Both the position numbers and the translations under genes were made by a program. 32,000 bases of DNA. Source: Sneathiella marina. Lineage in GTDB: Bacteria > Pseudomonadota > Alphaproteobacteria > Sneathiellales > Sneathiellaceae. The stretch lies in NCBI RefSeq assembly GCF_023746535.1, contig NZ_CP098747.1, forward strand, positions 656,364 to 688,363, given 5' to 3'. The notes under the pieces were generated by a model. The model worked only from the letters and a program-made list of their open reading frames with translations, was not told where the DNA came from and searched no databases. Position 1 is the first letter of the stretch. Each line of letters begins with the position of its first letter. Positions 2,124 to 21,925 of the stretch are shown in pieces.

Positions 2124-3770
2124 TCAGGCGGCTTCTTTTGATCGATTTCGACAGTAACAAGAGGCATGGATTGGCACTGTTGCACGGGCGACCGCCTGGT
2201 CGAGCATCAGTTTGATATGCTTGGATTCCGTTTCTTCACCCCGACGGTCTAGGCATTCGTGCAATCCATGCAAACTCCAGACATTCCGTGGGTGCTGGCA
2301 AGCTCTTGCCAATGTACCATCGAGCCCTAAATCGGCCCTGTAGATTGCTTCCGCTTCTTCAAATTGCCCAACTTCCATGAGAAGGGCACCTAATGCATGT
2401 CGTGTCGGTTGCATCCATCCCCAGGGCTCGTCGTATAACAACGCGTCATCGAGTTCAACAGAGCGGCGCAAATGATCAAGGCCTTCTTCGATGCGGCCTG
2501 ACTTAAATGCCAGCTCACCATCCATCATTGCCTCACCAATGTTCAATACATCTTCGCAAGTGTTATTGAACACCATGCGTCCTTCCTGTACCGCTTTGCT
2601 GGCGGCAATGGCCAGTTTTCGTTCTTCTTCCGCCGCCTCTATTTTGCCAAGATTGGCGAATGCGATCGTTCGTGCCTGGTGCATTGCGGTTGTTGTGTAG
2701 CTATACAGTTCCCGATCTTCAGGAAATGGTTCATCCAATATCTCCTGCCACTGCCCAAAGCGGACCATGACGTGTATTTTTTTACCGTAAAATGATTCGA
2801 ATAATTCCGGCATAAAACGCACGACAGGCTCGGGAAGCATCCGCATCAACTCCTCAGAGGCCGCGAGTGCCTTTTCCGGCTGTCCCAAAAACATCGCGCC
2901 ATAGGCTTCAAAATGCACATTATGAATGCGGTAAAGCGTGTAGAAATTCTCTCCGCCAGCAATGGCTTCATATTTTTGATCGACCTGCGCCGCCCGGTGG
3001 TTTCTCCAGATCACATTCTGATATTCCCCGCATAAAACATCGATATGCGTGGCCATATGAACCAGATGTCCGCTATCCGGAACGAGATCAACCAGCCGAT
3101 CTCCATGCCGCAATGCTTTTTCCGGCACGGGCGACATTTCCATTAAGTGAATATACATGTGCAAAAGACCCGGATGATCCCAAGCTCCCGGTAATTCGTC
3201 AAAGGCGCGTTCGAGAACGGTTTGGGCTTCCACCGTAGAGGCCCCTTCATTCGGTTCACCCGTTTCGAGGTTCCACAGGAGCCAGGGCGTGCGGTTCATC
3301 AGTGATTCAGCAAAAAGGGAAGATATATCCAAATCATCCCCGTGGCTGGCATAGACTGTTCGCATAGAATCTGAAAATGCATCGTTCCATGGAGAGTAAT
3401 CTTCAATTTCGGGATCGTCCGGGAAACGGTCCGCCAGCGCGTCGATTAGGGCAACTTCAATGGGTGAAAGGCTCTCACGTAAGGCTTGGGCTTTTTCGAT
3501 TGCCACATGGGCGCGTTCCAGAGTGGCAACACGTTCGTCTGCCTCAAAGAATTCCCAAGGCTTGTTGTAATTTGGACCAATAGCGTAGGCGACACCCCAG
3601 TGGGCCATTCCGCAACCTGGATCAGCGGAGATAGCTTTTTCAAAACATTCCGCCGCGGCTTCATGATTATATCCGAATAGCCAAACCAGCCCTTGATCGA
3701 ATTCTGTTTTGGCTGTTGAAGACGATGTTGTGATCTCGCGAGAATACGAGCCAAGATCAAAATTGGTCAT
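2124..3770 (-). CDS. TPR-repeat protein of unknown function (548 aa)
   Basis: ATG at 3770 is preceded by GGGAGGGG. The sequence is helical-repeat-like throughout (AAAECFEKAISADPGCGMAHWGVAYAIGPNYN...; FEEAEAIYRADL). No catalytic motif recognised. Confidence 0.55.
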   Translation of the reverse strand: MTNFDLGSYSREITTSSSTAKTEFDQGLVWLFGYNHEAAAECFEKAISADPGCGMAHWGVAYAIGPNYNKPWEFFEADERVATLERAHVAIEKAQALRESLSPIEVALIDALADRFPDDPEIEDYSPWNDAFSDSMRTVYASHGDDLDISSLFAESLMNRTPWLLWNLETGEPNEGASTVEAQTVLERAFDELPGAWDHPGLLHMYIHLMEMSPVPEKALRHGDRLVDLVPDSGHLVHMATHIDVLCGEYQNVIWRNHRAAQVDQKYEAIAGGENFYTLYRIHNVHFEAYGAMFLGQPEKALAASEELMRMLPEPVVRFMPELFESFYGKKIHVMVRFGQWQEILDEPFPEDRELYSYTTTAMHQARTIAFANLGKIEAAEEERKLAIAASKAVQEGRMVFNNTCEDVLNIGEAMMDGELAFKSGRIEEGLDHLRRSVELDDALLYDEPWGWMQPTRHALGALLMEVGQFEEAEAIYRADLGLDGTLARACQHPRNVWSLHGLHECLDRRGEETESKHIKLMLDQAVARATVPIHASCYCRNRSKEAA

Positions 3771-4031: not shown

Positions 4032-5057
4032 TTATTCCAGTCGGTAGATCCGGCTGGCGGTATCGTGGAATAAATCGGTTTTTTCCGTGATGCTATAATC
4101 AGTTGTTAGCCGCTTAAAGGAATTCCACAAAATATTATAGCTGCAACTTACTTTGTCGACGGGGAAATTTGATTCAAACATGCATCTTTTTGGGCCAAAC
4201 TGCTCGATTGTATGTTCATAAAATCGCCTCGTAGCTTCCATCAATTCTTTGCTGCTGGGAGGTCGTTTTTGATGATGCCAGTCAAATCCGTTAATTTCCA
4301 TGTTTATGCCTCCAAGCTTTGCGACAACATTGGGGCATGAAGCAAGTTCAGACAGGGCTTGTTTCCAGGCCGGGAAATATTCGTCCTGCGTTCCTTTGTA
4401 AGGGCCAATGCCCAAGGGGCCGCCAAAATGATTTAGGATTATGGTTGTTTCGGGAAAACTCCGCGCAAGGTCAGTCAGTTGGGGTATTTGAGGATGATAA
4501 CACCATCCCTCAAAACTAAGGTTGCGCGATGCAAGATTTGCAAATCCCCGTCGAAATTTTGCATCCAGGTATAAATTCTCTTTGGTCGTTGCTTGAGAAT
4601 TAGGTACTTGATCGCTTGGATCCCAAGATGCGCGATGGCGAATGCCACGAAAGCGACCACCACCGGCTTCAATATGTGCGTCAAGTACAGCTCCAACGGC
4701 ATCGCCCAGTGTAAGATCGGCCGACCCGACAATTCCGGCCGCAACTCGCGCATCACCATAAAGACCCGACGCGCTCATTGCCGCGATGCCATTGACGAAT
4801 TCCGTTTCGCCAACTGGTTTCAGGGAATCCGGGCCAGCTGACCGGTACATAGAACTGCATTCAATAAAGACTGTGGAAACAATGTTGTGCCCGCTATTCA
4901 TATCACTCAGGATTTCATCCAGCAGATAGCGCTGTGCCACTCTCTCTACTCGAAAATCCCATAAGTGATGATGTGCATCGCAAATTGGCAGGTCCGGATC
5001 CAATGTTTCTTCGATTGTCTGGTTAAGCCAGTCTATGTTTGTCGGAACATCGATCAT
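4032..5057 (-). CDS. Amidohydrolase-2 family metal-dependent hydrolase (PF04909-like)
   Basis: ATG at 5057. The N-terminal metal-binding motif ICDAHHHLWD, a length of 341 aa and a TIM-barrel hydrolase-like sequence (ILNHFGGP, FESNFPVDK) support the call. Confidence 0.75.
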   Translation of the reverse strand: MIDVPTNIDWLNQTIEETLDPDLPICDAHHHLWDFRVERVAQRYLLDEILSDMNSGHNIVSTVFIECSSMYRSAGPDSLKPVGETEFVNGIAAMSASGLYGDARVAAGIVGSADLTLGDAVGAVLDAHIEAGGGRFRGIRHRASWDPSDQVPNSQATTKENLYLDAKFRRGFANLASRNLSFEGWCYHPQIPQLTDLARSFPETTIILNHFGGPLGIGPYKGTQDEYFPAWKQALSELASCPNVVAKLGGINMEINGFDWHHQKRPPSSKELMEATRRFYEHTIEQFGPKRCMFESNFPVDKVSCSYNILWNSFKRLTTDYSITEKTDLFHDTASRIYRLE

Positions 5058-6555: not shown

Positions 6556-8370
6556 TTAGTCCGTGGCCTCTTTCACAAAGCTTATAGCGTCTCCTAACGA
6601 GGCAATTTGTGCAATCTGAGATGCGGAAAGCATAATCTCAAACTGGAGTTCGATTTCTTCGATGAGGGTCATATGAGCAAGAGAATCCCACCCTTCTGTA
6701 TTAAAGGGTGTGGAGTCTGAAGACAATTGCTCTTCTGGGACACCAAAGCAAAACGCGGCAATGGACAGGACATCTTTTGCTGATAAATTTTTCTTTTTTT
6801 CAAACTCAGGCGACGCGAGCTCATTCATTCGAACCTTACCAGACGGAGTTCTTGGTAATGATTCCAATATACGAAACTCACTTGGCGTACGTTCTGCGGA
6901 TAAATTTTCTCGGCAATAAGCAGCAGCGTCTGCCGAGGTAATCTTTTCCCCAGGTTTCGGTACCAGAGCAGCAACTAGCCGCTGATTACGAGTGACATCA
7001 GCCACGCCAAATACAACGGCTTCTTCTATTTTAGGCATATTGGCTAGGACACTTGTTACGGCTTCGGGGTAAATTGTGACTCCCGCCATGACAATTGCTG
7101 TTTTTTTCCGGCCTACAAACTTGAAAAGCCCGGCTTCTGTTTGCTGGACATAATCTCCTGTTAGAAATTTTCCATCTCTAAGGACTTGATCCGTTTGAAC
7201 TATATCGTTGAAATATCCCTTCATGACAGTTGGTCCTGAAATAGCTAACTCTCCGACTTCTCCTTGGGTAACCGGTAAGCCCTCCGCATCCAGGATTTGC
7301 ACATTGCACCCAACAGGTCTTCCAAGTGTGCCGATTTGGCGCGTCGTCTCGTCAGGTCCGGCAAATAGAGCATCGCAGACAACCTCGCTGAGGCCGTAGG
7401 CATTCACCACGGGTACGTTGAAAGTCTGCTCAAATCGTGTCCAAAGCTTATCCGTCAGCACATCTGCGCTTGAAAGTACAAATTTGAAATTAGGCTCTTG
7501 AAAGGCATGAACATTTATCTGACCAATGCGTTCTACTATGCTCAGCATTGCCGGGACGGAAATAAAATGCGTAATCTTCAGTTCTGATATAGATGCCAAA
7601 ATTTTCTGGATATTTTGAACAGAGAAAGGAATAGATCGGTGCACAGACCCGCCAAACCATAATGCAGTAAGCGGGCCTCTTATAATTCCATCCACATGGT
7701 GTAGCGGCAGAAAATTAAGTAATTTAATATCGGAATCAAATCCGTAAGCATCTGAAAAAATACCAAGCTGCGCAACTAAATTGGCATATGTTAATTCAAC
7801 TGCTTTTGGTAATGAGGTGGTTCCGGATGTAAAGACTAACATTGCGACTTCAGGTGTGTATTCGAATGTTTTCCGTGTAGGATTAGCCTGGGTATCAATG
7901 AGCTCAGCAATCGTCTGGGTGCCATGAATTGCAGGGGTTCCCTTGACTGTATCAGTCTGTATCCTTCTTGATGCAGGAATTTTTTCTATCACTGTTGGGT
8001 TTGATAATAAATCTGCATCTGCAAAAATGACTGCAGGCTGACACACTTCTAAACAATCTTCGATTTCGCTTCCCCTTACGTCACCATCGCCGATAACAGG
8101 TGTAAAACCTGATCGAAGCAATGACAGAAAAAGAACGATGATGGCACGGTCATTCTTTGAAAAAATAGCGACTCTATCGCCCGTCGAGAGGCCTAGGTTT
8201 TGAAAAGCCGTATCCAGGCTGTTCATTTCACGTAATAATTCATCGTAGGTCACTACGCCTTCAGACAAGTTGGCAAATACCTGACCCTCCCGAGCTTCGA
8301 GAATCCGGTCTACCCGGCTACAAAAATGGTGGAATGGCGCCTCAGGCGCTGAGTTAGTTGAATTGGGCAT
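6556..8370 (-). CDS. Acyl-AMP ligase (ANL adenylating enzyme) fused to a C-terminal phosphopantetheine carrier domain
   Basis: ATG at 8370 has AAGGGGTGG 3-11 nt upstream. The track TTG at 8397 lacks this. ANL core motifs are present: FTSGTTSLPKAV, NAYGLSEV, FLTGDYV, GRKKTAIVMAGVTIYPEAV, PRTPSGKVRMNEL. The carrier-domain motif is EGWDSLAHM, with the Ser codon at 6682-6684. Confidence 0.85.
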   Translation of the reverse strand: MPNSTNSAPEAPFHHFCSRVDRILEAREGQVFANLSEGVVTYDELLREMNSLDTAFQNLGLSTGDRVAIFSKNDRAIIVLFLSLLRSGFTPVIGDGDVRGSEIEDCLEVCQPAVIFADADLLSNPTVIEKIPASRRIQTDTVKGTPAIHGTQTIAELIDTQANPTRKTFEYTPEVAMLVFTSGTTSLPKAVELTYANLVAQLGIFSDAYGFDSDIKLLNFLPLHHVDGIIRGPLTALWFGGSVHRSIPFSVQNIQKILASISELKITHFISVPAMLSIVERIGQINVHAFQEPNFKFVLSSADVLTDKLWTRFEQTFNVPVVNAYGLSEVVCDALFAGPDETTRQIGTLGRPVGCNVQILDAEGLPVTQGEVGELAISGPTVMKGYFNDIVQTDQVLRDGKFLTGDYVQQTEAGLFKFVGRKKTAIVMAGVTIYPEAVTSVLANMPKIEEAVVFGVADVTRNQRLVAALVPKPGEKITSADAAAYCRENLSAERTPSEFRILESLPRTPSGKVRMNELASPEFEKKKNLSAKDVLSIAAFCFGVPEEQLSSDSTPFNTEGWDSLAHMTLIEEIELQFEIMLSASQIAQIASLGDAISFVKEATD

Positions 8371-9187
8371 TTTCCACCCCTTTTCTTTTTGCCCCAATTA
8401 GGTTTCCGAGAATATTCGCTAGAACACTTGCGCAATCCGGATCGCGGAGCATGGATAAATGGTCCCCTGGGACATTATGAGTAGTAACTGATCCGTGTAT
8501 GAATTTATCCCATCCCAGATCTCCATTACCATATCGCCATATTTTATTATTCTGTCCGGCCTTTAACACAATTGCGGATCCCGTTTTCCACTCACGTGGA
8601 TTGTATGTAGACATCATCTTGTACATTTGCCGAATTATATGCCGATAGGATTCGGGGTGTCGGTTCAGATCGAAACCTATTTGACCATATTTGTGCAACA
8701 TCATTGGGTCAATATTTCTCGAAATTAGGCGGCGCCAATTGCTGCCCAGATAGCGAATAGCATAGAGTAATTCCTGCAACGGTGACTGTAGCAATCGAGA
8801 TTGAATATTTTTGGAGCGAATTGTTGTGTCCAGAATAAAAAGTCTACAGAAAATCGCATGGGATTTCGACAGCCAATGCGCTGTCTCAAATGCAAAGTAT
8901 CCAGCGAAGGAAAATCCGCACACATTGATTGGTTCCGGAAGATTAGCCTCTGCAATATCTCTAGCGAAGCGTGCAGCTGCATCTATGAGGGATAGATTCT
9001 CTAAATTTTCTATCATGTCAGGCTTGAGACGAATGCCGTAGCAGTTTACATCGTTAGAAAGTTTTTGAACTATTGGTTTTGCGTAAAGTACGTTTCCGCC
9101 GAAGTCAGGAAAGAAAACCAAGCTACCTCCAGTGGCACACTTACTCATGGTAAAAACAGTTGAGGAATTATTTGACTGTCTGTCCAT
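8354..9187 (-). CDS. Thioesterase-domain alpha/beta hydrolase (type-II-TE-like)
   Basis: ATG at 9187. Motifs are LVFFPDFGGN, the nucleophile elbow GFSFAG and the C-terminal VPGDHLSML. The gene overlaps the downstream ligase::ACP gene by 17 nt. Confidence 0.7.
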   Translation of the reverse strand: MDRQSNNSSTVFTMSKCATGGSLVFFPDFGGNVLYAKPIVQKLSNDVNCYGIRLKPDMIENLENLSLIDAAARFARDIAEANLPEPINVCGFSFAGYFAFETAHWLSKSHAIFCRLFILDTTIRSKNIQSRLLQSPLQELLYAIRYLGSNWRRLISRNIDPMMLHKYGQIGFDLNRHPESYRHIIRQMYKMMSTYNPREWKTGSAIVLKAGQNNKIWRYGNGDLGWDKFIHGSVTTHNVPGDHLSMLRDPDCASVLANILGNLIGAKRKGVENAQFN

Positions 9188-9190
9188 TTA

Positions 9191-10372
9191 CTATGGCTTC
9201 TCGTTTGAGGGGGAGCGTCGGAACGGTAATCTCTCAGCTTCTGAAAGACGTTCTTGAAGGGCGGATTCGCGTTTACGATTTAGGCCCATTTCCGCAATTT
9301 CGTTAAAGTCGGACTCATTAAACCACATGGCGTGGCGTGTCGGTTCCATAGGGATACCTCGTTCAGACTTATGGAGACCAGTTGTACCAAAGTTAATTAT
9401 GTTTTGATTAGTCGCAATCGCTTGTTCAATAGTTTGATATATTCCCATTTCGAAAAGGAGAAACGGAACACTGCCCGTATGCCCCCAATGTTGTGCAAAG
9501 CGTATGTCTGTAGTGAGTACATCCAGTCGGGCGGCAATCCAAGCCTCATCCTTAAGCGCAATAGTCATTTCCAATGAATCTTTCATGCATTCTAATACCA
9601 TCTCGAAATAATTTAAGTTGAGCCAAGGAGCAGTTGTATTTCGAACAAATGTCGATTTATATAATTCGTAAAATTTGGGTGCCAGATCAGGGCCTATCTC
9701 TTTTCCGGAAAATGACCTGAATTTTAGGCCAGATGCAGCCACTTTGCGGCGATCCGACAATAATTTAGACCGTTTTGAGCTTCGCATCTTGCCAATGAAA
9801 TCGTCAAAATTATTTATGCCATCCGCGTTCCAAACATAGGCATTTCCTTCGGTGGTGATAAATTCCGATTGTCTGACGCAATTTTCGTCTTCATTTGACA
9901 TATAGGAAAGTTGAACTGATGCAGCCCGGTATTTCGAAGCCTGCTTCTTGAGACGGTTCAATAGCTCTGCTCGGGCAGTGGTGGCCTCAACACCTTCCTT
10001 TATAAGTAAGCGTGATCCGGATATAGGCGTGAAGGGCACTTCGACTTGTAGTTTGGGGTAATAGGGGCCGATAGATCGTTCATGCGCCATCGCCAGGCCT
10101 ATATCGACGCCTAGCTCGCCGTGAGAATGAGTTTTGAGGTAAGCAGGAGCGGCGGCGACAATGTTGCCGCAATCATCCCTTAAAGCGATATGTCGCGGAC
10201 TGAATCCAGTATCAGGTGATACGACACCGCTTTCTTCTAAGGCACGCAAATGCTGATGTCTAACAAAAGGATCTTTTTTGCCGGCGCAATCATTCCAATC
10301 GGCTTCTGGAATGCCGGCAATGCTGGTATGGCAGGTTGCGCTCCACTTTCCTATGCGATCAGATAAATTCAT
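9191..10372 (-). CDS. FemAB-like / DUF482 (PF04339-like) GNAT-fold acyl/aminoacyl transferase
   Basis: ATG at 10372 overlaps the GGT stop (TGATG). The N-terminal signature IPEADWNDCAGKKDPFVRHQHLRALEESGVVSPDTGFSPRHIAL and the 393-aa length fit the family as I remember it. Confidence 0.65.
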   Translation of the reverse strand: MNLSDRIGKWSATCHTSIAGIPEADWNDCAGKKDPFVRHQHLRALEESGVVSPDTGFSPRHIALRDDCGNIVAAAPAYLKTHSHGELGVDIGLAMAHERSIGPYYPKLQVEVPFTPISGSRLLIKEGVEATTARAELLNRLKKQASKYRAASVQLSYMSNEDENCVRQSEFITTEGNAYVWNADGINNFDDFIGKMRSSKRSKLLSDRRKVAASGLKFRSFSGKEIGPDLAPKFYELYKSTFVRNTTAPWLNLNYFEMVLECMKDSLEMTIALKDEAWIAARLDVLTTDIRFAQHWGHTGSVPFLLFEMGIYQTIEQAIATNQNIINFGTTGLHKSERGIPMEPTRHAMWFNESDFNEIAEMGLNRKRESALQERLSEAERLPFRRSPSNEKP

Positions 10373-12111
10373 CAGCTGATCTTTTGTTGAGAGTTGATTT
10401 TCGTCTTCTGACCGCTATCCCGACGCGGATCCCCTATGGCCTCGTAGTGGCCTTCGCCAGAACCAACAATGCAGACGGATGGCCGATTGATGCCATGTGA
10501 TGTTTCACGAGTGATTTTGTGACCAATCTTTTCCAGATTGACAGCAACGGGTTCGGGAATGCCTTCTTCAATCACTATTTTACCCGCAAAAGAAAGATGA
10601 GGCTCGCTTGATCCAGGGGCAGAATGGGTGAAGACACGTGGTTCGCTTACCGCATCTGCTAAGGGCTGATCAAAGATAAAATGGTTCATCAAAATCTGAA
10701 CTGCGGTTTGTAGCTGCAAGTCTGCGCCAGGCCCCCCGCCCGCAATAAATCGACCTTCGCGGTTCCGGATAATAAACGGACATGCGCTAACGCGTGGCCG
10801 TTTTCCGGGATAAAGGCATGCAGGATGGTCATTTGTAACGTAACTTTGACCGCCTCGTGTCGAAATTACGAACCCAAGATTTGGGACGGCTGGGCCATCG
10901 AACGAACTATCGCTAGGAGTCGATGCAAAGATATTTCCGTGTTTGTCTGCAACTACTGCAATGGAAGTATCCAACGAAGGAGAGAATTCCGTACTCCTTC
11001 GGTTTGCTGAGATTTTTGGTTTTTCAAGCCCTGAGAAGCTTCCCGCCGATGGTAGGGCATCAAATGCATGGTCGGTCTGAATTTGATTGGCGCGTTCAGC
11101 GGCATATGCGGGCGACAGAAGATGATCGCTCGGTACGTTTACAAAATTCGGATCCCCATAATAGGCCTCACGATCCGCCATTGCGAGCTTTATTGCCTCC
11201 AAAAATACATGATGACGAGAGCAGTTGATCTCGGATGGGTTCTCTCGGTAAAAGTGCTCCAAAATCTGAAGCGACTGTGATAGCACCGGCCCTTGTGACC
11301 AAAACCCACAAGTAAAGGCGGTTCCACCAAAAACCGGAGACGCAGTCGCCGGAACAACCGGAGTCTTATGTAAGGCAAGGTCTGTATGTGTCATCAATCC
11401 ATCGTGCTTAACGATATGACGGATCATTTCATCTGCGATTTCACCTTTGTAAAATATGTCGCGAACTGCAGACAATCCTGCAATCCGGTCTTTCTTTGAA
11501 GCGGCCTTTCGATCTGTTTCGATCATGGCACCAAGTGTGTTGGCCAAACTTGGTTGAATAAATGTCTGCCCTAATTGAACTGGTTGTCCATTTGGCAGCC
11601 AAATGTTCGTATTCTCTTCGTAGCGGCGGTAATATCGCTCGAACTGTTTCGTACAATCTACAAGATCCTGATGTGCTGGAAATCCCTCTTTAGCGAGATT
11701 TCTGGCAGGTTCTGCGAGTTCGAAGAAGCTCATGCTCCCGAACTGTTCCAATGCCGTAATCCAGGCATCAGGGCCTGCTGGTGTAACGGTCCTTAAAATA
11801 CCTTGAGGAATTCTTCCGCGATATTTTTCCTCGAAATGCGTCCTTTCGACTGCATGTGGCCAACTTCCGGCCCCCTCAATTGAATAGGTTTGTTGGCTTT
11901 CTGCCAGATACACCAAGATTGGGGAAACACCACCAAGCTGTACTTGCTCGGAATGAAGAACGGTCAAGGCTATAGATGCTGCAACTCCTGCATCGACAGC
12001 ATTTCCACCGGCATCCAGCACATCAGCAGCAATCTCCGCGGCTCTATTATGTCCTACAGAAACAGCATAGGAAGTGCCTCTATCTGCATGTTGTATATTC
12101 ACGACGACCAA
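10372..12111 (-). CDS. Gamma-glutamyltranspeptidase-family Ntn hydrolase, no signal peptide
   Basis: Motifs are AADVLDAGGNAVDAGVAASIALTVLH, the nucleophile region LDTSIAVVADKHGNIF, and GGGPGADLQ near the C-terminus. The start is TTG at 12111 (alternative GTG at 12105). The N-terminus has no hydrophobic leader. Confidence 0.85.
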   Translation of the reverse strand: MVVVNIQHADRGTSYAVSVGHNRAAEIAADVLDAGGNAVDAGVAASIALTVLHSEQVQLGGVSPILVYLAESQQTYSIEGAGSWPHAVERTHFEEKYRGRIPQGILRTVTPAGPDAWITALEQFGSMSFFELAEPARNLAKEGFPAHQDLVDCTKQFERYYRRYEENTNIWLPNGQPVQLGQTFIQPSLANTLGAMIETDRKAASKKDRIAGLSAVRDIFYKGEIADEMIRHIVKHDGLMTHTDLALHKTPVVPATASPVFGGTAFTCGFWSQGPVLSQSLQILEHFYRENPSEINCSRHHVFLEAIKLAMADREAYYGDPNFVNVPSDHLLSPAYAAERANQIQTDHAFDALPSAGSFSGLEKPKISANRRSTEFSPSLDTSIAVVADKHGNIFASTPSDSSFDGPAVPNLGFVISTRGGQSYVTNDHPACLYPGKRPRVSACPFIIRNREGRFIAGGGPGADLQLQTAVQILMNHFIFDQPLADAVSEPRVFTHSAPGSSEPHLSFAGKIVIEEGIPEPVAVNLEKIGHKITRETSHGINRPSVCIVGSGEGHYEAIGDPRRDSGQKTKINSQQKIS

Positions 12112-12326
12112 CTCATTGAACGCGGCGTAAATCCAGCGCTTTATTGAACTAAGATAACAAATTTATATTATATAACTTTATGAGTTAATTTTTTATTTTA
12201 GCCATCAAGCCGCGATCAAAAGGTTTCATTCATTAAGTCCAGCTTTGAGAAGGCCGTCCAGAACAGCCTTGAAATCTGGACCGTGAATATATCCTCCATC
12301 TCGCGATCTTAAGGTTCTTCAAGAAC

Positions 12327-13235
12327 TTAAGGGCGTGAGGCCTGTACCTCCTGAAGCAGCCAGTCGCGAAAAGCCGCGACCTTGGGCTGATTGTCGCTAT
12401 CTTTCGCGCTTAGTAGATAATAGGAGAATTTGAGGGGCGTATTCAGGCTCGGGTTGAAAGGGCGCACGAGGCGACCAGAGGCGATGTCATCTGCCACCAG
12501 AATGTCGCCGATCAACGCCACGCCTTGACCATCTAGTGCGGCTTGCACCGCCATATTTTCCATAGTGAACCGTGGCCCGCGAGCAGGGTCAATGTCGTGC
12601 AAGCCAGCTGCGAGCATCCACATTCGCCAACTCGCCTCGGCATCTTTCCATTCAACATGTAGCAATGTGTGGTGGCGCAGATCGTCGGGCTGGACCAAGG
12701 GATGCTTTCCGCTTAAGAGGGCCGGGCTACAGACCGGCATGTTGACCTGATTGAACAGGTGGTCGATCCGCACTCCATTGTAGCCGCCAGGGCCATAACG
12801 CAGCGCCACGTCGACGTTGTCGCGCGCAAGATCAACCAGACGATCGGTCCCGTCGATGCGGATCTCGATGTCGGGGTGCCGACTACGGAAATGCTCGAGC
12901 CGAGGTACCAGCCACATGGCGCCAAATGAGGGATTGACGCTGATGGTCAACACCCCGCTCTCGCTGTGGGCACGTATTTGCTCGATACCCTGGGCTAGCT
13001 TGTCGAAGCCCTGGCTGAGAATTGGCAGGGCCGCCTGGCCGGCGTCAGTTAGGCGCAGCGCCCGGGTCAGACGTCGGAACAGGGGCACATTTAATAATTC
13101 CTCAAGTGATTTGACCTGATGACTGACTGCTCCTGGCGTGACGTTTAGCTCGGCTGCTGCCTTTGTGAAGCTAAGGTGCCGAGCGGCAGATTCAAAGGCC
13201 TTAATAGCGTTTAAGGGTGGGAGTGATCTGGGCAT
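12327..13235 (-). CDS. LysR-family transcriptional regulator (GcvA/AmpR-like subgroup)
   Basis: The N-terminal wHTH is LPPLNAIKAFESAARHLSFTKAAAELNVTPGAVSHQVKSLEE. Length is 302 aa. The gene is divergent from the DMT gene at 13531. Confidence 0.9.
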   Translation of the reverse strand: MPRSLPPLNAIKAFESAARHLSFTKAAAELNVTPGAVSHQVKSLEELLNVPLFRRLTRALRLTDAGQAALPILSQGFDKLAQGIEQIRAHSESGVLTISVNPSFGAMWLVPRLEHFRSRHPDIEIRIDGTDRLVDLARDNVDVALRYGPGGYNGVRIDHLFNQVNMPVCSPALLSGKHPLVQPDDLRHHTLLHVEWKDAEASWRMWMLAAGLHDIDPARGPRFTMENMAVQAALDGQGVALIGDILVADDIASGRLVRPFNPSLNTPLKFSYYLLSAKDSDNQPKVAAFRDWLLQEVQASRP

Positions 13236-15381: not shown

Positions 15382-15557
15382 TATGTATGAAAACGTGATG
15401 CTCAGGAAAAATAACGAACTACCAGTACACGGAATTTCAGTCTGCGTGGATTCACAAAGCTCCAAATGCAACTTACAGACAGAACAACAATTTTTAAAAT
15501 GCTTGTCGAGGCCGCGAGTCTCTGTATTCGATCTAAAATAAATTTCCGCCTAACTCT

Positions 15558-18320
15558 TCAATTTCGTTTCCAATTGGTGTGTTCAAAAATGCTTTTTTCA
15601 ACTGACCATTGCTCGACCAGATAATCTTTGAAACTTCCATTTTTTGAGACACCTTTCAGATCCAAAATACTATATTTTACTTCGCGATCTTCTGAAAAAA
15701 TTTCATCCAAAGACAAAATTCTTGGACATCCCCCTATCACTTCACATGCCATAGTGGCAACGTCTCCGCTGGTCGTCAAAGCATTTGAAGTATGGAGTTC
15801 TGGTTGATGAGCATCAACATTTTTAACTAAAAACAAGGCGTGGAAAAAGCCCGGCATTCTTCTACCTTCATACCCGATGCCAATTTGATCGACGAATGCC
15901 GGATCAAACATCGGATTGTCTACCCACCAACCATGGTCGGAGACGACTTGTATTTGCGTTGAATTGTATACTTTATCCGCTTTCATTCTTTCGAAAATTT
16001 TAGCTAATTGGAGAAGAGAATATGTTGCTTCAGCTTTGTAATCGCCTTTGCCTTTTTGACTGATGTTTCCTTCCTGATCAATAACGTTAGGACCATGAGG
16101 CACATGTAGATGTATAAAGTTTAGCGTTGGTTTTTCTGAAGTAGCTACTTCTTTTTCAGAGAGACTATCAAGCAATTTGATCATTTTCAGTTTAGAATTC
16201 GTTGATTCATCGTTGTGAGTTTTATCCAAGTAGGTGAAATAGAAATGTTCTCTGAAAAATAGCGGGAACGATTTTAAAATTGAAAACTTAATCAGTGATC
16301 TGATTACAAAATTATCGGCTTCCGGGTTGTTCGAATTTGCGTAGCCATTGCCATCAATCTTGTATATTGACGCGTCCTTATTAGAGATTTTGACATTAAA
16401 TTTTGGTTGTACAATATTGCTATTGTACCCTTTAGGCTTAAAAAGCTCAGGTAATACCAAATAAGAATCCGCTAGAGTATCAAGCATTCTGTCATTGCTT
16501 GAGGGTATTACATTTTCTATGTGAAAGCGATGTCCCCCAAAAATAGAGGGGAGTGAGCCGATTGTTCCTCCTGAATTTGCGACACTATTTTTGTACCAAG
16601 TAAAATCCTTGAACCCATTTCTGATTTTTCTATTTTCCTTCACAAGCTCCGGAAATAGACCACCTGAAAATCCGTCCAGGATAATTACAAGAACATTTTT
16701 TCCTGATTTTGAAAGAGTTAGATTGAAATCTCTGGCTTCTAGGTAAGAGCTTTCTGTTTGGTTATCCGTATTGCCTGCGTTTGCCACCAGTAAAGAAGCT
16801 GCACTTACAGAGATCGTCGCCAATGATGTTATGAACAATAATAGTAACAATGGAACGAAATAGGATTGCAGTTTATTGAAATTCTTCAAAAATAAGAGAA
16901 ACAATCCAACCAAGACGGTGAATTCCAAAATTGAATGAAAGGCACTGACATTGATAAGGTCTGGCTGATTAAATGTAAAATTGTCCAGTAGGCCGTAATT
17001 TAACCCAACAAGTTTAGAGTAGACAAAGAAAATGGTGCTTAAATATACTGAAAGTATCAAAATGGATTTTACGATATTTTCGGATGAAAACCTTAGTAAA
17101 ATATAGCCCAACATTATGGCTAGACAAAAAATTGTTATGTTAGCCAACAAAATAGTGAAATATTCAATTCCATAATACTCGCTGGGGTCAGATAAGTATA
17201 AATTCAAAGGGTTATCGAGAACGATAATAAAGATCAGAAGCGACAGGAACCCAAGAGAAACGAGACGTAATTTTGCTTGGCTATATGAAAGAGACGCCGT
17301 ATTTCCCAAAACACCAAAAAAGAGGGCAGCCTGTACACCTAAGACAAGAAAAGAAATATTTATAAACAGTAGTGAGGGAAGCCGGTATTGGTCGCTGATC
17401 TGACCAAAGGCCATTGCCACCTGAAGTAAGAACAAAACATAGAGAACAAATTTGGAAAGATAAGAAAAATTGTATGAAAATTTAACTGAGAAATAAAAGA
17501 GAATGATTTCTAACGAAATAATTAGAGCTACAATATTGCTGTTTTCATCGGCAATTTGAGTTGGCAAAAAATGGTCAATTAAGCAAAAGCTGATAACAAA
17601 AATACAAAGGGATACTGTGTATTTGTTGATAAGGAAGTCATAGATTTGACGTCTGGAAACAGTGGAGATAAGTAACACGCCCCTTTTATCAGCATTTCTC
17701 ATGATGATAATGTTTCTAAATAGAATAAAGGCGTTGCTTACTGTCCAGTATATTAGCAAAACAGATTTAGCGTTGTATAAAAGAACTAGAAATAGAAGGC
17801 TAACGCCAAAAGCTTGAATTAGATCGTTTTTTGTGAAATTCGGTGTTGTTAATGCAGCTGCCACATTTACAAATGTCATAATAAAAGGAAGTAAATTTCC
17901 TTGGCCTAAAATTAGATTGTCAGGGCCTCCCAGATTTTTAATAAAGATAAATTGTTCACCATTCAAAACATCAAGCTGTTCAAACATAAAATAGGTAAGA
18001 ACTAACAAGGGGAGCTGTATGAAAAGACCAAGCAGCTTTCTTACTGAGTATATTGGATGGTAACTGTAGCGATTATATAGATTATTTAATCTAGTGTGCT
18101 GTTCAGCGCCCTTACTTTCTTTTTTAATTCTTTCAACTTGAGGAGCTAAAACAGTTTGAAAACTGGTTTCTTTGTAAACTATTAAATTGGCCAATTTTGT
18201 TGGCTTTATCAGTAGCAAACTAACAAATAGAGACAGAAGTATGGTAGCGAGGCCATAGCTATGAACAATATTAGAGATGAAAAGAAATAAACTCTCGTAA
18301 TATGAAATAACAATATTCAA
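15558..18320 (-). CDS. 920-aa membrane fusion: YidC/Oxa1-like N-terminal domain + polytopic segment + C-terminal alkaline-phosphatase-superfamily (sulfatase/LtaS/EptA-like) phosphotransferase domain
   Basis: TTG start at 18320 has AAGGT about 10 nt upstream. Residues 1 to ~210 show YidC/Oxa1 hallmarks: GLATILLSLFVSLLLIKP; LNNLYNRYSYHPIYS..LLGLFIQLPLLVLTYF; LLIYWTVSNAFILFRN. By eye there are about 14 hydrophobic segments in total. The C-terminal ~375 aa carry VLVIILDG (Asp codon 16674-16676), SGGTIGSLPS (candidate Thr nucleophile, codon 16563-16565), HLHVPHGP and VVSDHGWW. Confidence 0.7.
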   Translation of the reverse strand: MNIVISYYESLFLFISNIVHSYGLATILLSLFVSLLLIKPTKLANLIVYKETSFQTVLAPQVERIKKESKGAEQHTRLNNLYNRYSYHPIYSVRKLLGLFIQLPLLVLTYFMFEQLDVLNGEQFIFIKNLGGPDNLILGQGNLLPFIMTFVNVAAALTTPNFTKNDLIQAFGVSLLFLVLLYNAKSVLLIYWTVSNAFILFRNIIIMRNADKRGVLLISTVSRRQIYDFLINKYTVSLCIFVISFCLIDHFLPTQIADENSNIVALIISLEIILFYFSVKFSYNFSYLSKFVLYVLFLLQVAMAFGQISDQYRLPSLLFINISFLVLGVQAALFFGVLGNTASLSYSQAKLRLVSLGFLSLLIFIIVLDNPLNLYLSDPSEYYGIEYFTILLANITIFCLAIMLGYILLRFSSENIVKSILILSVYLSTIFFVYSKLVGLNYGLLDNFTFNQPDLINVSAFHSILEFTVLVGLFLLFLKNFNKLQSYFVPLLLLLFITSLATISVSAASLLVANAGNTDNQTESSYLEARDFNLTLSKSGKNVLVIILDGFSGGLFPELVKENRKIRNGFKDFTWYKNSVANSGGTIGSLPSIFGGHRFHIENVIPSSNDRMLDTLADSYLVLPELFKPKGYNSNIVQPKFNVKISNKDASIYKIDGNGYANSNNPEADNFVIRSLIKFSILKSFPLFFREHFYFTYLDKTHNDESTNSKLKMIKLLDSLSEKEVATSEKPTLNFIHLHVPHGPNVIDQEGNISQKGKGDYKAEATYSLLQLAKIFERMKADKVYNSTQIQVVSDHGWWVDNPMFDPAFVDQIGIGYEGRRMPGFFHALFLVKNVDAHQPELHTSNALTTSGDVATMACEVIGGCPRILSLDEIFSEDREVKYSILDLKGVSKNGSFKDYLVEQWSVEKSIFEHTNWKRN

Positions 18321-18351
18321 AGCTAATTACCTTATGAAGGCTAGTAAGTGA

Positions 18352-19632
18352 CTATTTCTGCACCAAATCTGGTAGATACTGAATTATACTTGGAGAGGAG
18401 TTCCCAAAATTTGTGACACAGCGGTCCCTGAAAGACGAGATGTTTTTTGAAGATTGCTGCTCTAGTACAGATTTGATAATTTCTCCTAATTTCCCAATCT
18501 CATTGGGCGCAATTGATACACCAATCTGTGATGCCGCTTCATCATCCCAGAACTCATCCAGATCTTCCGCCTCAAAGCCGACCAGGTCTTTTGCCGAAAT
18601 TTGTAATGAAATTACTGGTTTCTCATAAATAAATGCGAAATCAAAGCGTATAGAGGAAGTGTCTGAAATCAAAATATCAGAAATACTCATTGAGTAATTT
18701 GGAGAGATTTCATCATCCCATTTGAAATTGTCAAAGGTTTCCAGTTCTTTTTTGCATTGATCGATAAATTCGGGTTCAGCTATTCTCGAATGAGGATGAG
18801 GGCGAACGATGACATTATACCCCTGTTCAAGTAGAGCTTTTATAAAAGAAATTCCGTACGCTTTTAGGCAGCCCTTAGGCCCCCAAGAAGAGCCAATGAG
18901 GATCGTTGTTTTATCTTGCTTAAGAACGGAAGGATTGCGGTTTTTATACAGTTCATCCAGGTATGGTAGACCGAGGGATATCAATCTTTTTGGCTTCAGA
19001 TTCCGTCTTTTTTCAATACTTCGAATTGATTTTTCCTGGAAAGGGCCAGCCATGATAACGGTATCATATTTATCTAAAGAGAATTTTTTATATGTCGATA
19101 TATCTCCAACATGGTGAAAAATATGAACCAAATTTCCAACCATATTGGATTTTTTCAAAAAATAATTCTTGGCGCCGATGTTTGGAGAGGTGGAAACCAT
19201 GACAGGCGCTTCTATGTGAGACAATTCCTTTAGCCCGAAAATAGACCTGCTACATCTCTTGGAGTTCATGTAAGGGCTTTCGATTTCTAATGCCGGATCA
19301 AACAGATCCAATGTCCTGTAACGGAAATAAATTTTTCGGCTTATTAGTTCTTCAACAATTGGGCGAAATGTTCCCCAATAAGCGCGCCCTTCGCTAAACA
19401 GAACAAGAGTATTCTTGGGCGAGTGCGTGTCCTGTGCATCATCTTTTAATCCTGCTATGCGGTAAAAGAAGGTCTTAATGGTATACCATACTGCGCCCAA
19501 TGCCGCGAACAGGACTCCAACCAGCGCACTCCCGGAACCTGGGTCCAAATATGCGTAAGCAGGCTTGGAATATAAAACCAAACAACCGATGAAAAAAAGA
19601 TCAACGAGCACCCTTTTAGTCGTACCTAACAT
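18352..19632 (-). CDS. Membrane-anchored TagB/TagF-like (Glyphos_transf-like) phosphotransferase
   Basis: ATG at 19632 overlaps the upstream stop by 7 nt. The N-terminus has hydrophobic anchors (VLVDLFFIGCLVLY; ALVGVLFAALGAVWY). The C-terminal half carries motifs reminiscent of CDP-glycerol glycerophosphotransferases: ILIGSSWGP, VIVRPHPHS, ILISDTSSIRFDFAFIYEKPVI. Confidence 0.55.
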   Translation of the reverse strand: MLGTTKRVLVDLFFIGCLVLYSKPAYAYLDPGSGSALVGVLFAALGAVWYTIKTFFYRIAGLKDDAQDTHSPKNTLVLFSEGRAYWGTFRPIVEELISRKIYFRYRTLDLFDPALEIESPYMNSKRCSRSIFGLKELSHIEAPVMVSTSPNIGAKNYFLKKSNMVGNLVHIFHHVGDISTYKKFSLDKYDTVIMAGPFQEKSIRSIEKRRNLKPKRLISLGLPYLDELYKNRNPSVLKQDKTTILIGSSWGPKGCLKAYGISFIKALLEQGYNVIVRPHPHSRIAEPEFIDQCKKELETFDNFKWDDEISPNYSMSISDILISDTSSIRFDFAFIYEKPVISLQISAKDLVGFEAEDLDEFWDDEAASQIGVSIAPNEIGKLGEIIKSVLEQQSSKNISSFRDRCVTNFGNSSPSIIQYLPDLVQK

Positions 19633-20765
19633 AGAGCCCTCAATGTTTTGCGTATCATTTCAGGTGTTAGCTGAATTGGGTGATTACTCAGACGTTCAAC
19701 ATTAACTTGCTCAATAATTCTATCAATTACTTTGCTCGAATTCACTTTGGTTGTATCTAGCTTGATTGAAAGGCCGCAGGCTTTCATAATTGCATACCAG
19801 CGATCTTTAGCTGCGGTTGCATTTTTTACGTTTAGCAATACGTAAAGGTCTCTCATCGTTTTGGCGAAGCTCGATGGGGTTACATTATGATTATAGCCTT
19901 GGATGTTTTCTTGTGCATGCAGTTCAAAGAACAATCCCAATGTGATAGCGGCAGCATGACCATGGGGTAAGCCAAATTCCTTAGTAATTCCGTATGACAG
20001 AGCATGTGGCGCCGTCGTTTTACTTATGTTAATTGCTTTGCCAGCTAAATGGGCAGCTTGAACCACTGATGTTCTTTTTTCTTTGTGGCCCATTGAAACA
20101 GCTTCTGTCAGGTCCTTTATGAGTATCTTTATGGCTTGCGAGGCGTAAAGTTTACTTTCCGATGTTGCATTGGCTGACCAGTAAGACTCCACGGCCTGGC
20201 ATAAAGCGTCAAACCCGGTACAGGCGGATATGTATTGCGGCAGGTTATCCACGAAGCAGGCATCCACAATAGAAACATCTGGCATCAATTGATCGGATGC
20301 CAAGGAATATTTGACGCCATCAACATATATAACGGCAAAATGTGTAGCCTCGCTCCCTGTACCGCAAGTTGTGGGTATTGCAATAAGAGGGCATAGCTCA
20401 TTGGAAACTTTGTCTTTTCCAGTTGCGATTTCTTTTTCTCGACCAGAATGCGCCTGAATTGCATTTATTGTCTTCGCAATATCAATAGCGCTTCCCCCAC
20501 CAACAGCTATGATCAAATCATACTTCTTAGCCTTAAATTCAACTGCTCCTTTTATAGCCTGGTCGAGAGTGGGGTTTGATGTGTAGTCGTTAAAATAAAA
20601 TACTTTGCGATCTTTAAGTGCGGTATCTAGCAACTGCTTTGCGCCACTGTCGTGGAAAGACTTTTTACCTGTCACCAGAAATATATTTTTGCTGCCTAGC
20701 CGTTCAATTTCTAGTGATAAATTTGCGATGGCTCCTCGGCCTATATGTTCTGTGCTATATTTCAT
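19626..20765 (-). CDS. Iron-containing (group III) alcohol dehydrogenase; by context a phosphonoacetaldehyde reductase making 2-hydroxyethylphosphonate
   Basis: Fe-ADH motifs are AVGGGSAIDIAK and HALSYGIT...PHGHAA. The ATGA overlap with the phosphonopyruvate decarboxylase gene implies translational coupling. The context matches the PhpC/FomC-type step. Confidence 0.7.
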   Translation of the reverse strand: MKYSTEHIGRGAIANLSLEIERLGSKNIFLVTGKKSFHDSGAKQLLDTALKDRKVFYFNDYTSNPTLDQAIKGAVEFKAKKYDLIIAVGGGSAIDIAKTINAIQAHSGREKEIATGKDKVSNELCPLIAIPTTCGTGSEATHFAVIYVDGVKYSLASDQLMPDVSIVDACFVDNLPQYISACTGFDALCQAVESYWSANATSESKLYASQAIKILIKDLTEAVSMGHKEKRTSVVQAAHLAGKAINISKTTAPHALSYGITKEFGLPHGHAAAITLGLFFELHAQENIQGYNHNVTPSSFAKTMRDLYVLLNVKNATAAKDRWYAIMKACGLSIKLDTTKVNSSKVIDRIIEQVNVERLSNHPIQLTPEMIRKTLRALC

Positions 20766-21892: not shown

Positions 21893-21925
21893 AACACAAC
21901 CTATCTTAAATTTGGTTTTACGGAA

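Follow-up and report, generated by a model that had tools for sequence, protein, structure and literature searches.

Background

A close precedent for the locus analyzed here is livipeptin biosynthesis, in which a tRNA-utilizing transferase is combined with an NRPS that has no condensation domain (PMC10548850). The livipeptin paper cites PacB of the pacidamycin pathway as a further case, which involves a carrier-bound acceptor. In the GGT family, an Asp-Thr cleavage motif was reported for LmbA2991 (PMC5519988), and LmbA and Ant6 are reported to be without gamma-glutamyl activity (PMC6085292).

Here we describe a four-gene operon of Sneathiella marina, located in a 32,000-nt stretch of its genome (contig NZ_CP098747.1, positions 656,364 to 688,363) that is referred to as the window. 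One product of the operon is a member of DUF482 (PF04339, COG3146), a widespread family that includes plant proteins. Our search of the literature on DUF482, PF04339, COG3146 and FemAB-like proteins found no functional study or demonstrated activity, and an earlier "pterin-dependent enzyme" prediction for PF04339/COG3146 gained no support when examined by complementation (PMC3223725). The operon is rare and uncharacterized, yet recurrent in Alpha- and Betaproteobacteria, and its probable function is the carrier-protein-based assembly of a small compound with an amide linkage. Our preferred reading, to which we assign a probability of roughly 0.4, is that of a horizontally mobile, minimal NRPS-like module without a condensation domain, in which the DUF482 protein makes the amide bond.

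Results

Structure of the operon

The four minus-strand genes encode, from 5' to 3', a GGT-like protein, a DUF482/FemAB_like protein, a thioesterase (TE) and an AMP-ligase fused to a carrier protein (Table 1). The first two genes share a TGATG overlap, the second and third are separated by a 3-nt gap (TAG-taa-ATG), and the third and fourth overlap by 17 nt, with a Shine-Dalgarno-like run, GGGGTGGA, preceding the ATG at 8370. These junctions, read from the sequence, are as a preliminary description of the locus had given them in claiming translational coupling, and the overlaps suggest that the four genes are co-transcribed. Profile searches also returned every Pfam family predicted there, namely PF01019 (323 bits), PF04339 (306 bits), PF00975 (45 bits) and, in the ligase, PF00501 (204 bits) with PF13193 and PF00550. 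The condensation domain PF00668 had no match in the four operon proteins or in 24 others among the 31 ORFs that reach 120 aa in the window; the scan covered all but seven of these (8-379, 321-929 and 829-1410 at the window start and four nested or antisense frames). The earlier statement that condensation and KS domains are absent is upheld. Speaking against the preferred reading, the module has no linked gene for a phosphopantetheinyl transferase, a transporter or resistance.

Table 1. Features of the operon and their positions in the window
Feature	Position (nt)	Strand	Remarks
GGT-family Ntn hydrolase homologue	10372-12111	-	ORF; likely start GTG at 12102
DUF482/COG3146 tandem-GNAT transferase	9191-10372	-	PF04339 FemAB_like
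Stand-alone type-I-like thioesterase	8354-9187	-	PF00975
Ligase::carrier ORF	6556-8397	-	ATG at 8370 is the likelier start
ANL adenylating domain of the ligase::carrier fusion	6805-8370	-	PF00501 + PF13193
C-terminal carrier-protein domain	6559-6795	-	PF00550; Ser572 at nt 6682-6684
AT-rich upstream region, presumed promoter/operator of the operon	12103-12326	-	Upstream conservation with locus L081

The ~100 nt immediately preceding the GGT start are also conserved at the orthologous locus L081, although the upstream gene is a different one there; AAAATTAACTCATAAAGTT and a TATAAT-like box lie within this conserved stretch. Promoter and terminator scans gave nothing above shuffled expectation, Rfam had no match in the upstream region, and no riboswitch or tRNA clue was found at the locus. 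A split in composition between the GGT gene and the three downstream genes had been suspected. GC3 is uniform, however, at 0.39-0.43 in all four genes, and the difference in total GC resides in codon positions 1 and 2; a foreign origin of the three genes was rejected on this account. A phosphonate/teichoic-like surface-polymer island begins 3.4 kb from the module and was excluded from it because no orthologous locus has the island. The remark that the window holds no EPS genes is thus only loosely true, given a nearby surface-polymer island that is unlinked in other genomes. Neither an exosortase nor a PLP decarboxylase was found in the window.

Distribution and inheritance of the module

The operon was initially considered an orphan. 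The four-gene set occurs, with its order unchanged and with unrelated flanks, in no fewer than 10 further genomes or metagenome contigs of Alpha- and Betaproteobacteria, including Sneathiella spp., Palleronia, a Rhodobacteraceae genome, a Burkholderiales MAG and several metagenome contigs. Linkage in the same order in so many unrelated contexts is far beyond chance. A three-gene core of DUF482, TE and ligase::carrier protein, without the GGT gene, was found inside polysaccharide/PEP-CTERM loci, where three such relatives (L005, L091 and L096) sit among EPS genes and PEP-CTERM/VPLPA-CTERM-like proteins. No exosortase was seen in the stretches examined around these three, and a regular-expression search for PEP-CTERM tails in module loci yielded nothing beyond two Pfam matches.

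Neighbor-joining trees of DUF482, TE and ligase::carrier protein are congruent. The module DUF482 proteins form a monophyletic clade apart from stand-alone DUF482 proteins, whose genes have a RidA-like neighbor and housekeeping surroundings and offer no functional clue. The TE family is tiny, and every homologue of at least 29% identity lies between DUF482 and ligase::carrier genes. GGT is missing from basal module lineages, and we propose that it joined the module in one sub-lineage.

The flanks are catabolic in several loci (e.g. amidohydrolase, dioxygenase, TRAP/Tct transporters), and non-module relatives of the GGT homologue (~42% identity) adjoin transporters and oxidoreductases in heterogeneous contexts. 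Both observations would fit a catabolic or salvage operon, in which the Ntn hydrolase splits an imported amide and the ligase activates the freed acid for further use. We regard this as very unlikely: a covalent carrier domain and a releasing TE mark biosynthesis rather than catabolism, the GGT-less core occurs in polysaccharide biosynthesis loci, and no transporter is conserved with the module in the orthologous loci compared.

Ligase and carrier domain

The ANL motifs A3, A5, A7, A8 and A10 are intact in the ligase, and neither the core motifs of the ANL fold nor the carrier Ser vary among the homologues. The carrier domain scores 26.1 bits against PF00550 (cut-off 20.8), and its Ser572 lies within the invariant motif STPFNTxGWDS(L/M)AH, as expected of the modifiable Ser assumed beforehand. 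Its pI is 4.05, and that of the partner TE orthologues is ~9-10 in 13 of 17 (9.36 for the TE in the window) and 6.1-6.7 in the other four. The nearest solved relatives of the ligase are oxalate- and malonate-CoA ligases, with a score of 165 bits for oxalate-CoA ligase versus 105 bits for DltA. Against the NRPS adenylation-domain model TIGR01733 it reaches 157 bits (cut-off 317), and by these scores the adenylating domain is closer to acyl-CoA synthetases than to NRPS adenylation domains.

The pocket stretches HHVDG, SAD and CD are invariant in all lineages, and the residues that touch the distal carboxylate in the solved relatives are altered: Asp236 takes the place of His216, Ala311 with the adjoining Asp312 that of Ser289, and Cys341-Asp342 that of His319. 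Asp236 aligns with the Asp of FHIDC in the E. coli carnitine-CoA ligase CaiC. By sequence alignment, the acidic pocket suggests that the substrate is an acid with an amino or ammonium group.

Oxalyl chemistry had come under consideration from the best PDB matches, which are oxalate-CoA ligase for the ligase and, for the GGT homologue, a protein apparently of the oxalate-releasing LmbA type. It was rejected because Ser289 and His319, the oxalate-specific residues of AAE3-type oxalate-CoA ligases (PMC8905533), are not kept in the ligase (Ala311 and Cys341), and acidic residues replace or flank them.

Thioesterase

The catalytic triad of the TE (Ser93 at nt 8909-8911, Asp120 and His243) is invariant in 28 homologues. 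An AF2 model (pLDDT 87) found its best folds among the TE domains of pimaricin, FAS, Vlm2, AB3403, NocB and Pks13. Pks13 TE off-loads onto a sugar. Almost all of the best 50 fold matches listed are chain-terminating TE domains of PKS, NRPS or FAS; the entry at rank 47, 3tej, carries no label beyond that of a peptide-biosynthesis domain fragment, and none of the 50 is labelled a stand-alone type II TE. As modelled, the protein looks like a chain-releasing type I thioesterase rather than a type II editing enzyme. Of the two roles first offered for it, releasing or editing, this favors the former and speaks against the latter.

DUF482 transferase

By sequence, the DUF482 protein has no match to any solved structure. 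Its AF2 model (pLDDT 93.9) has a tandem GNAT fold, and the best folds for it are FemX (Foldseek E = 2e-15, probability 1.0), the aminoacyl-tRNA-dependent peptide synthases Sbb17/Sba18, FemA and aminoacyl-PG synthases. The likeness to these Fem-type folds is moderate (TM ~0.5; identity 9-16% over all of them and 13-16% for the Fem proteins) and does not separate donor types. The pI of the DUF482 proteins, ~6-9, is not notably basic, as a tRNA binder might be, and was set aside as an uninformative hint of tRNA binding. The best reading of the modelled fold is that DUF482 acts as the amide-bond former of the module.

The gene set would look no different if DUF482 drew its acyl group from the carrier. 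In such a Dlt/AlmEFG-like scheme, the ligase would load an amino-acid-like acid on the carrier and DUF482 would use the resulting aminoacyl thioester instead of aminoacyl-tRNA. The acceptor would be soluble or lipid-linked (for example, a nucleotide sugar, a glycan or a small amine), and the TE would only proofread. This logic of ligase, carrier and transferase is established for D-alanylation and lipid A glycylation, and Fem-like folds work on aminoacyl esters. The ligase pocket is identical in all contexts, and the GGT-less modules lie inside polysaccharide loci with an acceptor sugar at hand. We nevertheless consider such a transfer possible but rather doubtful. The TE has the fold of a type I releasing enzyme and is conserved and co-evolving as strictly as the other core genes, beyond what would be expected of a proofreader, and the Dlt and Alm systems work without a TE and through membrane transferases that are absent here.

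GGT homologue

The GGT homologue retains Thr382 (nt 10966-10968), which aligns with Thr391 of E. coli GGT, the nucleophile at the self-cleavage site. It is preceded by Asp instead of Gln, so that a D-T cleavage site is kept within an LDTS motif. Residue 17 aligns with residue 27 of the mature E. coli chain and the conserved core begins at residue ~16, leaving no space for a signal peptide; the protein is indeed leaderless, as had been surmised. Its best PDB match, at only ~154 bits, is 6j3a, a 617-aa leaderless GGT homologue that, judging from its D420-T421, is apparently LmbA2991. A literature search on the PDB codes 6J3A and 6J3I found no paper.

The preliminary description had foreseen true gamma-glutamyl transfer or hydrolysis together with an acyl-carrier-dependent GNAT, yielding an N-acyl or gamma-glutamyl amino-acid/peptide conjugate. 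Membership in PF01019 and the intact Thr nucleophile are compatible with this, and acyl-ACP-using GNAT N-acyl amino-acid synthases linked to PEP-CTERM loci do exist. However, every residue with which E. coli GGT holds the alpha-amino and alpha-carboxylate groups of the gamma-glutamyl moiety is replaced in the eight module orthologues compared (R114 by Ala/Val, N411 by Asp, Q430 by Gly, D433 by Ser and S462 by Val/Ala), and in all eight the lid region is gapped, the Tyr444 lid loop being deleted. Because these residues are lost, even with the nucleophile kept, gamma-glutamyl chemistry is unlikely. The scores against TIGR00066 (247 bits, cut-off 357.85) and NF007187 (140 bits, cut-off 990) fall short, the closest solved relative is apparently of the LmbA type, whose members LmbA and Ant6 reportedly show no gamma-glutamyl activity, the core module can do without GGT, and the acidic ligase pocket speaks against a plain fatty acid. 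The conjugate route as first drawn is for these reasons improbable. The absence of the GGT homologue from basal lineages and its re-modelled pocket point to an accessory, non-canonical enzyme.

Discussion

The broad proposal put forward at the outset, that an amide conjugate is made by a non-canonical route dependent on a carrier protein, holds. In our preferred reading of a module without a condensation domain, the ligase would adenylate a small amino- or ammonium-bearing carboxylic acid and load it as a thioester onto its own carrier domain. DUF482 would stand in for the condensation domain by acylating the tethered amine, most likely with an aminoacyl-tRNA as donor, as for PacB, FemX and Sba18, or possibly with an acyl-CoA. 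The type-I-like TE would then free the product from the carrier, either hydrolytically or by passing it to an acceptor, which in the GGT-less relatives would be a sugar or polysaccharide. The GGT-family protein, a putative cytoplasmic Ntn hydrolase with a non-gamma-glutamyl pocket, may trim or mature the product or a precursor.

A bolder formulation, which we advance with considerable reservation, is that DUF482 represents a new class of condensation catalyst acting on carrier-tethered substrates. With a dedicated releasing TE and a self-loading ligase it would make up a mini assembly line of three proteins, whose product would be either a polysaccharide bearing an aminoacyl or dipeptidyl unit or a small, free metabolite of peptide-like nature. 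In one lineage, an Ntn hydrolase of the LmbA-like, non-gamma-glutamyl kind would have been added to carry out a new trimming step.

If correct, the proposal would provide the first functional lead on PF04339/COG3146 and would bring the types of tRNA-like or GNAT "condensation surrogate" in non-ribosomal peptide logic to three. It would also imply a so far unrecognized acyl or aminoacyl decoration of proteobacterial exopolysaccharides, and would show that the chemistry of GGT-fold Ntn hydrolases reaches past glutathione metabolism. At 5.5 kb, the module is compact and self-contained, and thus directly accessible to heterologous expression.

Comparison with known systems

With canonical NRPSs the module shares an adenylation domain and a carrier with a modifiable Ser, but it is without their condensation domain. 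DltABCD and AlmEFG likewise use an ANL ligase to load a small amino acid on a dedicated carrier, and they decorate an envelope polymer; here, in contrast, a single protein combines ligase and carrier, the role of transferase falls to a soluble tandem GNAT protein, and the set includes a TE but no membrane component.

An echo of the exosortase-A set of ligase, ACP, FemAB-like protein and hydrolase had been pointed out earlier and proved helpful. The parts list is similar and GGT-less modules do lie beside PEP-CTERM-like proteins. Membership in that set is not borne out, since the proteins are non-orthologous: the ligase scores 162 bits against TIGR03098 (cut-off 592), and neither DUF482 nor the TE matches TIGR03019 or TIGR03100/03101.

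LmbA and Ant6, which are C-C hydrolases releasing oxalate, resemble the GGT homologue in being leaderless GGT-family proteins with an Asp-Thr motif and a non-gamma-glutamyl pocket. Their context differs, as there are no L-DOPA (extradiol) dioxygenase or 4-alkyl-L-proline genes in the window or in orthologous loci. FemXAB, Sba18/Sbb17 and the aminoacyl-PG synthases share the tandem-GNAT fold of the DUF482 model and are its best structural matches, whereas DUF482 belongs to another Pfam family and has the low identity to them given above.

Several features set the module apart from the livipeptin and PacB systems. Its transferase is a DUF482/PF04339 protein and not an L/F-transferase or PacB-type Fem protein, a stand-alone TE takes the part of an R domain in release, and the adenylating domain is nearer to acyl-CoA synthetases. 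The hosts are Alpha- and Betaproteobacteria, and tRNA use would apply here by analogy. As in livipeptin Sli0883-85 and PacB, however, an adenylation-carrier protein without a condensation domain lies beside a GNAT-superfamily transferase with aminoacyl-tRNA-using relatives, and a separate terminal activity carries out release.

Recurrence and evolution of the module

The gamma-glutamyltranspeptidase (GGT) homologue, DUF482 protein, thioesterase and AMP-ligase::carrier protein form a module that occurs in the same gene order in other genomes, as found by tblastn and homologue look-ups, and the operon can no longer be called an orphan, as it was in the preliminary description. A genome-collection scan seeded with DUF482 yielded 80 loci. 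By tblastn with the four window proteins, three Sneathiella genomes and one Burkholderiales metagenome-assembled genome (MAG) among these had all four genes in this order, and Paracoccus endophyticus carried a version without GGT; the remaining 75 of the 80 loci had DUF482 alone, at ~35% identity to the window protein. Individual homologue look-ups added a metagenome locus (77% identical), a MAG, Palleronia sp. KMU-117 and a Rhodobacteraceae genome, each with different flanking genes. In a thioesterase-seeded metagenome scan, every thioesterase homologue of at least 29% identity had a DUF482 gene on one side and a ligase::carrier gene on the other, so DUF482-thioesterase-ligase::carrier protein constitutes the invariant core. 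GGT lies upstream of the core in one large sub-group and is absent from loci L005, L091/L092, L094, L096 and L097.

Very few thioesterases belong to this family, which comprised 28 clusters in a word-indexed search of 5.8 billion proteins. The three core proteins gave congruent trees by simple neighbour joining; in them, the DUF482 proteins of modules formed one clade separate from stand-alone DUF482, and the GGT-less lineages were basal branches. Between the window and Sneathiella sp. HT1-7, identity is 78% for the flanking amidohydrolase but only 50-60% for the module proteins, implying either that the module is diverging faster than its surroundings or that a xenologue has replaced it. In locus L086, a GGT-homologue C-terminus is followed directly by a module-type thioesterase and a STAND-NTPase-like gene, with neither DUF482 nor ligase::carrier protein, an apparent module remnant.

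Gene structure of the operon

A Pfam scan matched exactly the families that had been predicted for the four genes. Reading the sequence directly, the GGT/DUF482 junction is ...TGATG..., a 1-nt stop/start overlap, and the DUF482/thioesterase junction is TAG-taa-ATG. The ligase::carrier ATG at 8370, a start backed by orthologue alignment, has GGGGTGGA just before it and gives a 17-nt overlap with the thioesterase stop. The four genes are presumably co-transcribed. Conservation with L081, the closest orthologous locus, covers ~100 nt 5' of the GGT start although the upstream gene differs there, which would fit an operon with its own promoter and GGT first in line. The GGT homologue is indeed leaderless, lacking a signal peptide and having its conserved core from ~residue 16; judging from the database gene call, which is 576 aa long, translation would begin at the GTG at 12102. 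The suspected compositional difference between genes proved to be an amino-acid effect, GC3 being 0.39-0.43 in all four.

Features of the window and of related loci
Feature	Locus	Coordinates	Strand	Families or content
GGT homologue ORF	window	10372-12111	minus	PF01019, 323 bits
DUF482 ORF	window	9191-10372	minus	PF04339, 306 bits
Thioesterase ORF	window	8354-9187	minus	PF00975, 45 bits
Ligase::carrier protein ORF	window	6556-8397	minus	PF00501, PF13193, PF00550 (26 bits; cut-off 20.8 bits)
Flanking amidohydrolase	window	4032-5057
Flanking amidohydrolase	L001 (Sneathiella sp. HT1-7)	3-542
LysR gene	window	12327-13235	minus
Low-GC island	window	15558-23224	minus	PEP mutase-cytidylyltransferase fusion; phosphonopyruvate-decarboxylase-like TPP enzyme; Fe-alcohol dehydrogenase; TagF-like glycerophosphotransferase; 920-aa membrane protein (YidC-like N-terminus, LtaS/sulfatase domain)
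Ligase/ApbA-PanE pair	L002	5581-8081
Ligase/ApbA-PanE pair	L003	5624-8124
Ligase/ApbA-PanE pair	L081	14023-16523
Ligase/ApbA-PanE pair	L087-L089
Aminoacyl-tRNA synthetase	L005 (P. endophyticus)	15411-16733		class I, Glu/Gln-type
MbnB/TglH/ChrH-family gene	L083 (MAG)	2193-3083
Apparent module remnant	L086	1-3593

Predicted properties of the module proteins

All ANL core motifs of the ligase are intact, as is the catalytic Lys, and the acidic carrier domain (pI ~4) has an invariant Ser in its motif STPFNTxGWDS(L/M)AH. Among solved structures, oxalate-CoA ligases of plants and yeast came closest (165 bits), ahead of other acyl-CoA ligases; DltA scored 105 bits. The published oxalate pocket (PMC8905533) was compared by HMMER alignment, in which oxalate-specific Ser289 and His319 correspond to Ala311 (followed by Asp312) and Cys341 (followed by Asp342), and oxalate-ligase His216 to Asp236. 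These pocket residues are invariant in every lineage, with or without a linked GGT. In CaiC, the E. coli carnitine-CoA ligase, the substrates of which are cationic, the residue aligned with Asp236 is the Asp of the FHIDC motif. Judging from these alignments, the ligase substrate would be a small acid bearing an amino or ammonium group, the same in all module versions.

No solved structure is related to DUF482 at the level of sequence. Its predicted structure is a tandem GNAT (pLDDT 93.9), best matched by FemX, Sbb17/Sba18, FemA, aminoacyl-phosphatidylglycerol synthases and a clavulanate-pathway tandem GNAT. A full-text literature search for DUF482/PF04339/COG3146 found no functional work, only a weak match to AlpO of the argolaphos cluster and an invalidated prediction of a pterin-dependent enzyme, which a complementation test failed to bear out (PMC3223725). 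Stand-alone DUF482 proteins of Alphaproteobacteria (L006-L080) share ~35% identity with the module type; in 60 of these 75 loci the gene for a 157-aa, putatively RidA/YjgF-like protein lies just before, and apparent NDUFA12-like and other housekeeping genes are nearby.

The thioesterase has an invariant Ser93-Asp120-His243 triad and is basic in the window (pI 9.4), with a pI of at least 9 in 13 of 17 orthologues and of 6.1-6.7 in four. Its model (pLDDT 87) best matched chain-terminating thioesterase domains (pimaricin, FAS, Vlm2, AB3403, NocB, Pks13 and surfactin), and no stand-alone type II thioesterase was among the top 50 fold matches. This type-I character, together with strict co-evolution with the core, makes the main rival to the pathway proposed below somewhat less likely; in that rival, a Dlt/Alm-like scheme, the carrier would be the acyl donor for DUF482, with the thioesterase acting as proofreader.

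Aligned with E. coli Ggt, the GGT homologue keeps the Thr nucleophile, preceded by Asp. Genuine gamma-glutamyl chemistry, as had been suggested, is nevertheless less likely, given that all module orthologues have other residues in place of Arg114, Asn411, Gln430, Asp433 and Ser462 of E. coli Ggt and have lost its lid loop. The TIGR00066 score was below cut-off. The best PDB match, 6j3a, is a leaderless GGT homologue of 617 aa with D420-T421; because these coordinates coincide with those reported for LmbA2991, a C-C-bond-cleaving GGT homologue (PMC5519988), we take 6j3a to be LmbA2991. Its relatives LmbA and Ant6 are described in PMC6085292 as being without gamma-glutamyl activity. At ~42% identity there are relatives of the window protein outside the module, their contexts being mixed, and those checked at 47% identity or more were all in modules.

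Genomic neighbourhoods

Of the four GGT-less loci that were informative, three sit within polysaccharide biosynthesis loci, and it is on these three that the association is based. L005 has a polysaccharide pyruvyl transferase and a GFO/IDH/MocA oxidoreductase; L091 has UDP-glucose dehydrogenases, ManC, a Wzx-like flippase, a glycosyltransferase and a pyruvyl transferase, with a PEP-CTERM-type protein directly upstream; and L096 has ManC, a GT4 glycosyltransferase, an AAA_22 ATPase and a VPLPA-CTERM-like protein. None of these kinds of gene was found within 10 kb of GGT-type modules. The proposed echo of an exosortase-linked parts list was thus a good lead as to the GGT-less loci, but membership in the curated families fails: TIGR03098 reached 162 bits where the cut-off is 592, and neither the FemAB model nor the hydrolase models had a match.

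Other neighbours were observed. A second AMP-binding ligase (506 aa) is paired with an ApbA/PanE-type 2-ketoacid reductase (~326 aa). In some Sneathiella-type genomes this pair is the immediate upstream neighbour of the module, and in another genome it is the immediate downstream one; the pair, which may supply a substrate for the module, is not in the window. The aminoacyl-tRNA synthetase gene 1.6 kb 3' of the P. endophyticus module may be a coincidence, or relevant if DUF482 uses aminoacyl-tRNA. Just upstream of the window operon is a LysR gene with a GC3 of 0.64, versus ~0.4 in its neighbours, and no counterpart was found beside the module in the other loci searched (tblastn, E below 1e-6), including L081, where a different LysR gene lies upstream and gave no match to it. 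One MAG has an MbnB/TglH/ChrH-family gene ~5 kb upstream of its module, which is probably unrelated. The window also carries a low-GC island (34-44%) that resembles a phosphonate surface-decoration cluster.

Discussion

The favoured reading of the parts is a split, NRPS-like line free of condensation domains. The ligase would self-load an amino-acid-like acid, and DUF482 would stand in place of a condensation domain and acylate the tethered amine, with aminoacyl-tRNA as the putative donor by analogy with its structural relatives, or alternatively acyl-CoA. The type-I-like thioesterase would release the product or transfer it to an acceptor, which in the basal versions without GGT is probably a polysaccharide or a polysaccharide precursor. 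The four-gene operon of the window is a derived form, in which the re-modelled Ntn hydrolase may add a hydrolytic trimming step. Relative to this split line, a catabolic role of the operon is less likely.

A full-text literature search found no description of the GGT/DUF482/thioesterase/ligase::carrier protein combination. The logic of a carrier protein with a GNAT-type condensation surrogate is already known; new here are the choice of protein families and the accessory of GGT fold. Sbb17/Sba18, among the best fold matches of the DUF482 model, are aminoacyl-tRNA-dependent peptide synthases. Livipeptin provides a precedent for a tRNA-utilising transferase working with a C-minus NRPS (PMC10548850), and PacB is cited in that paper as working on carrier-bound peptide.
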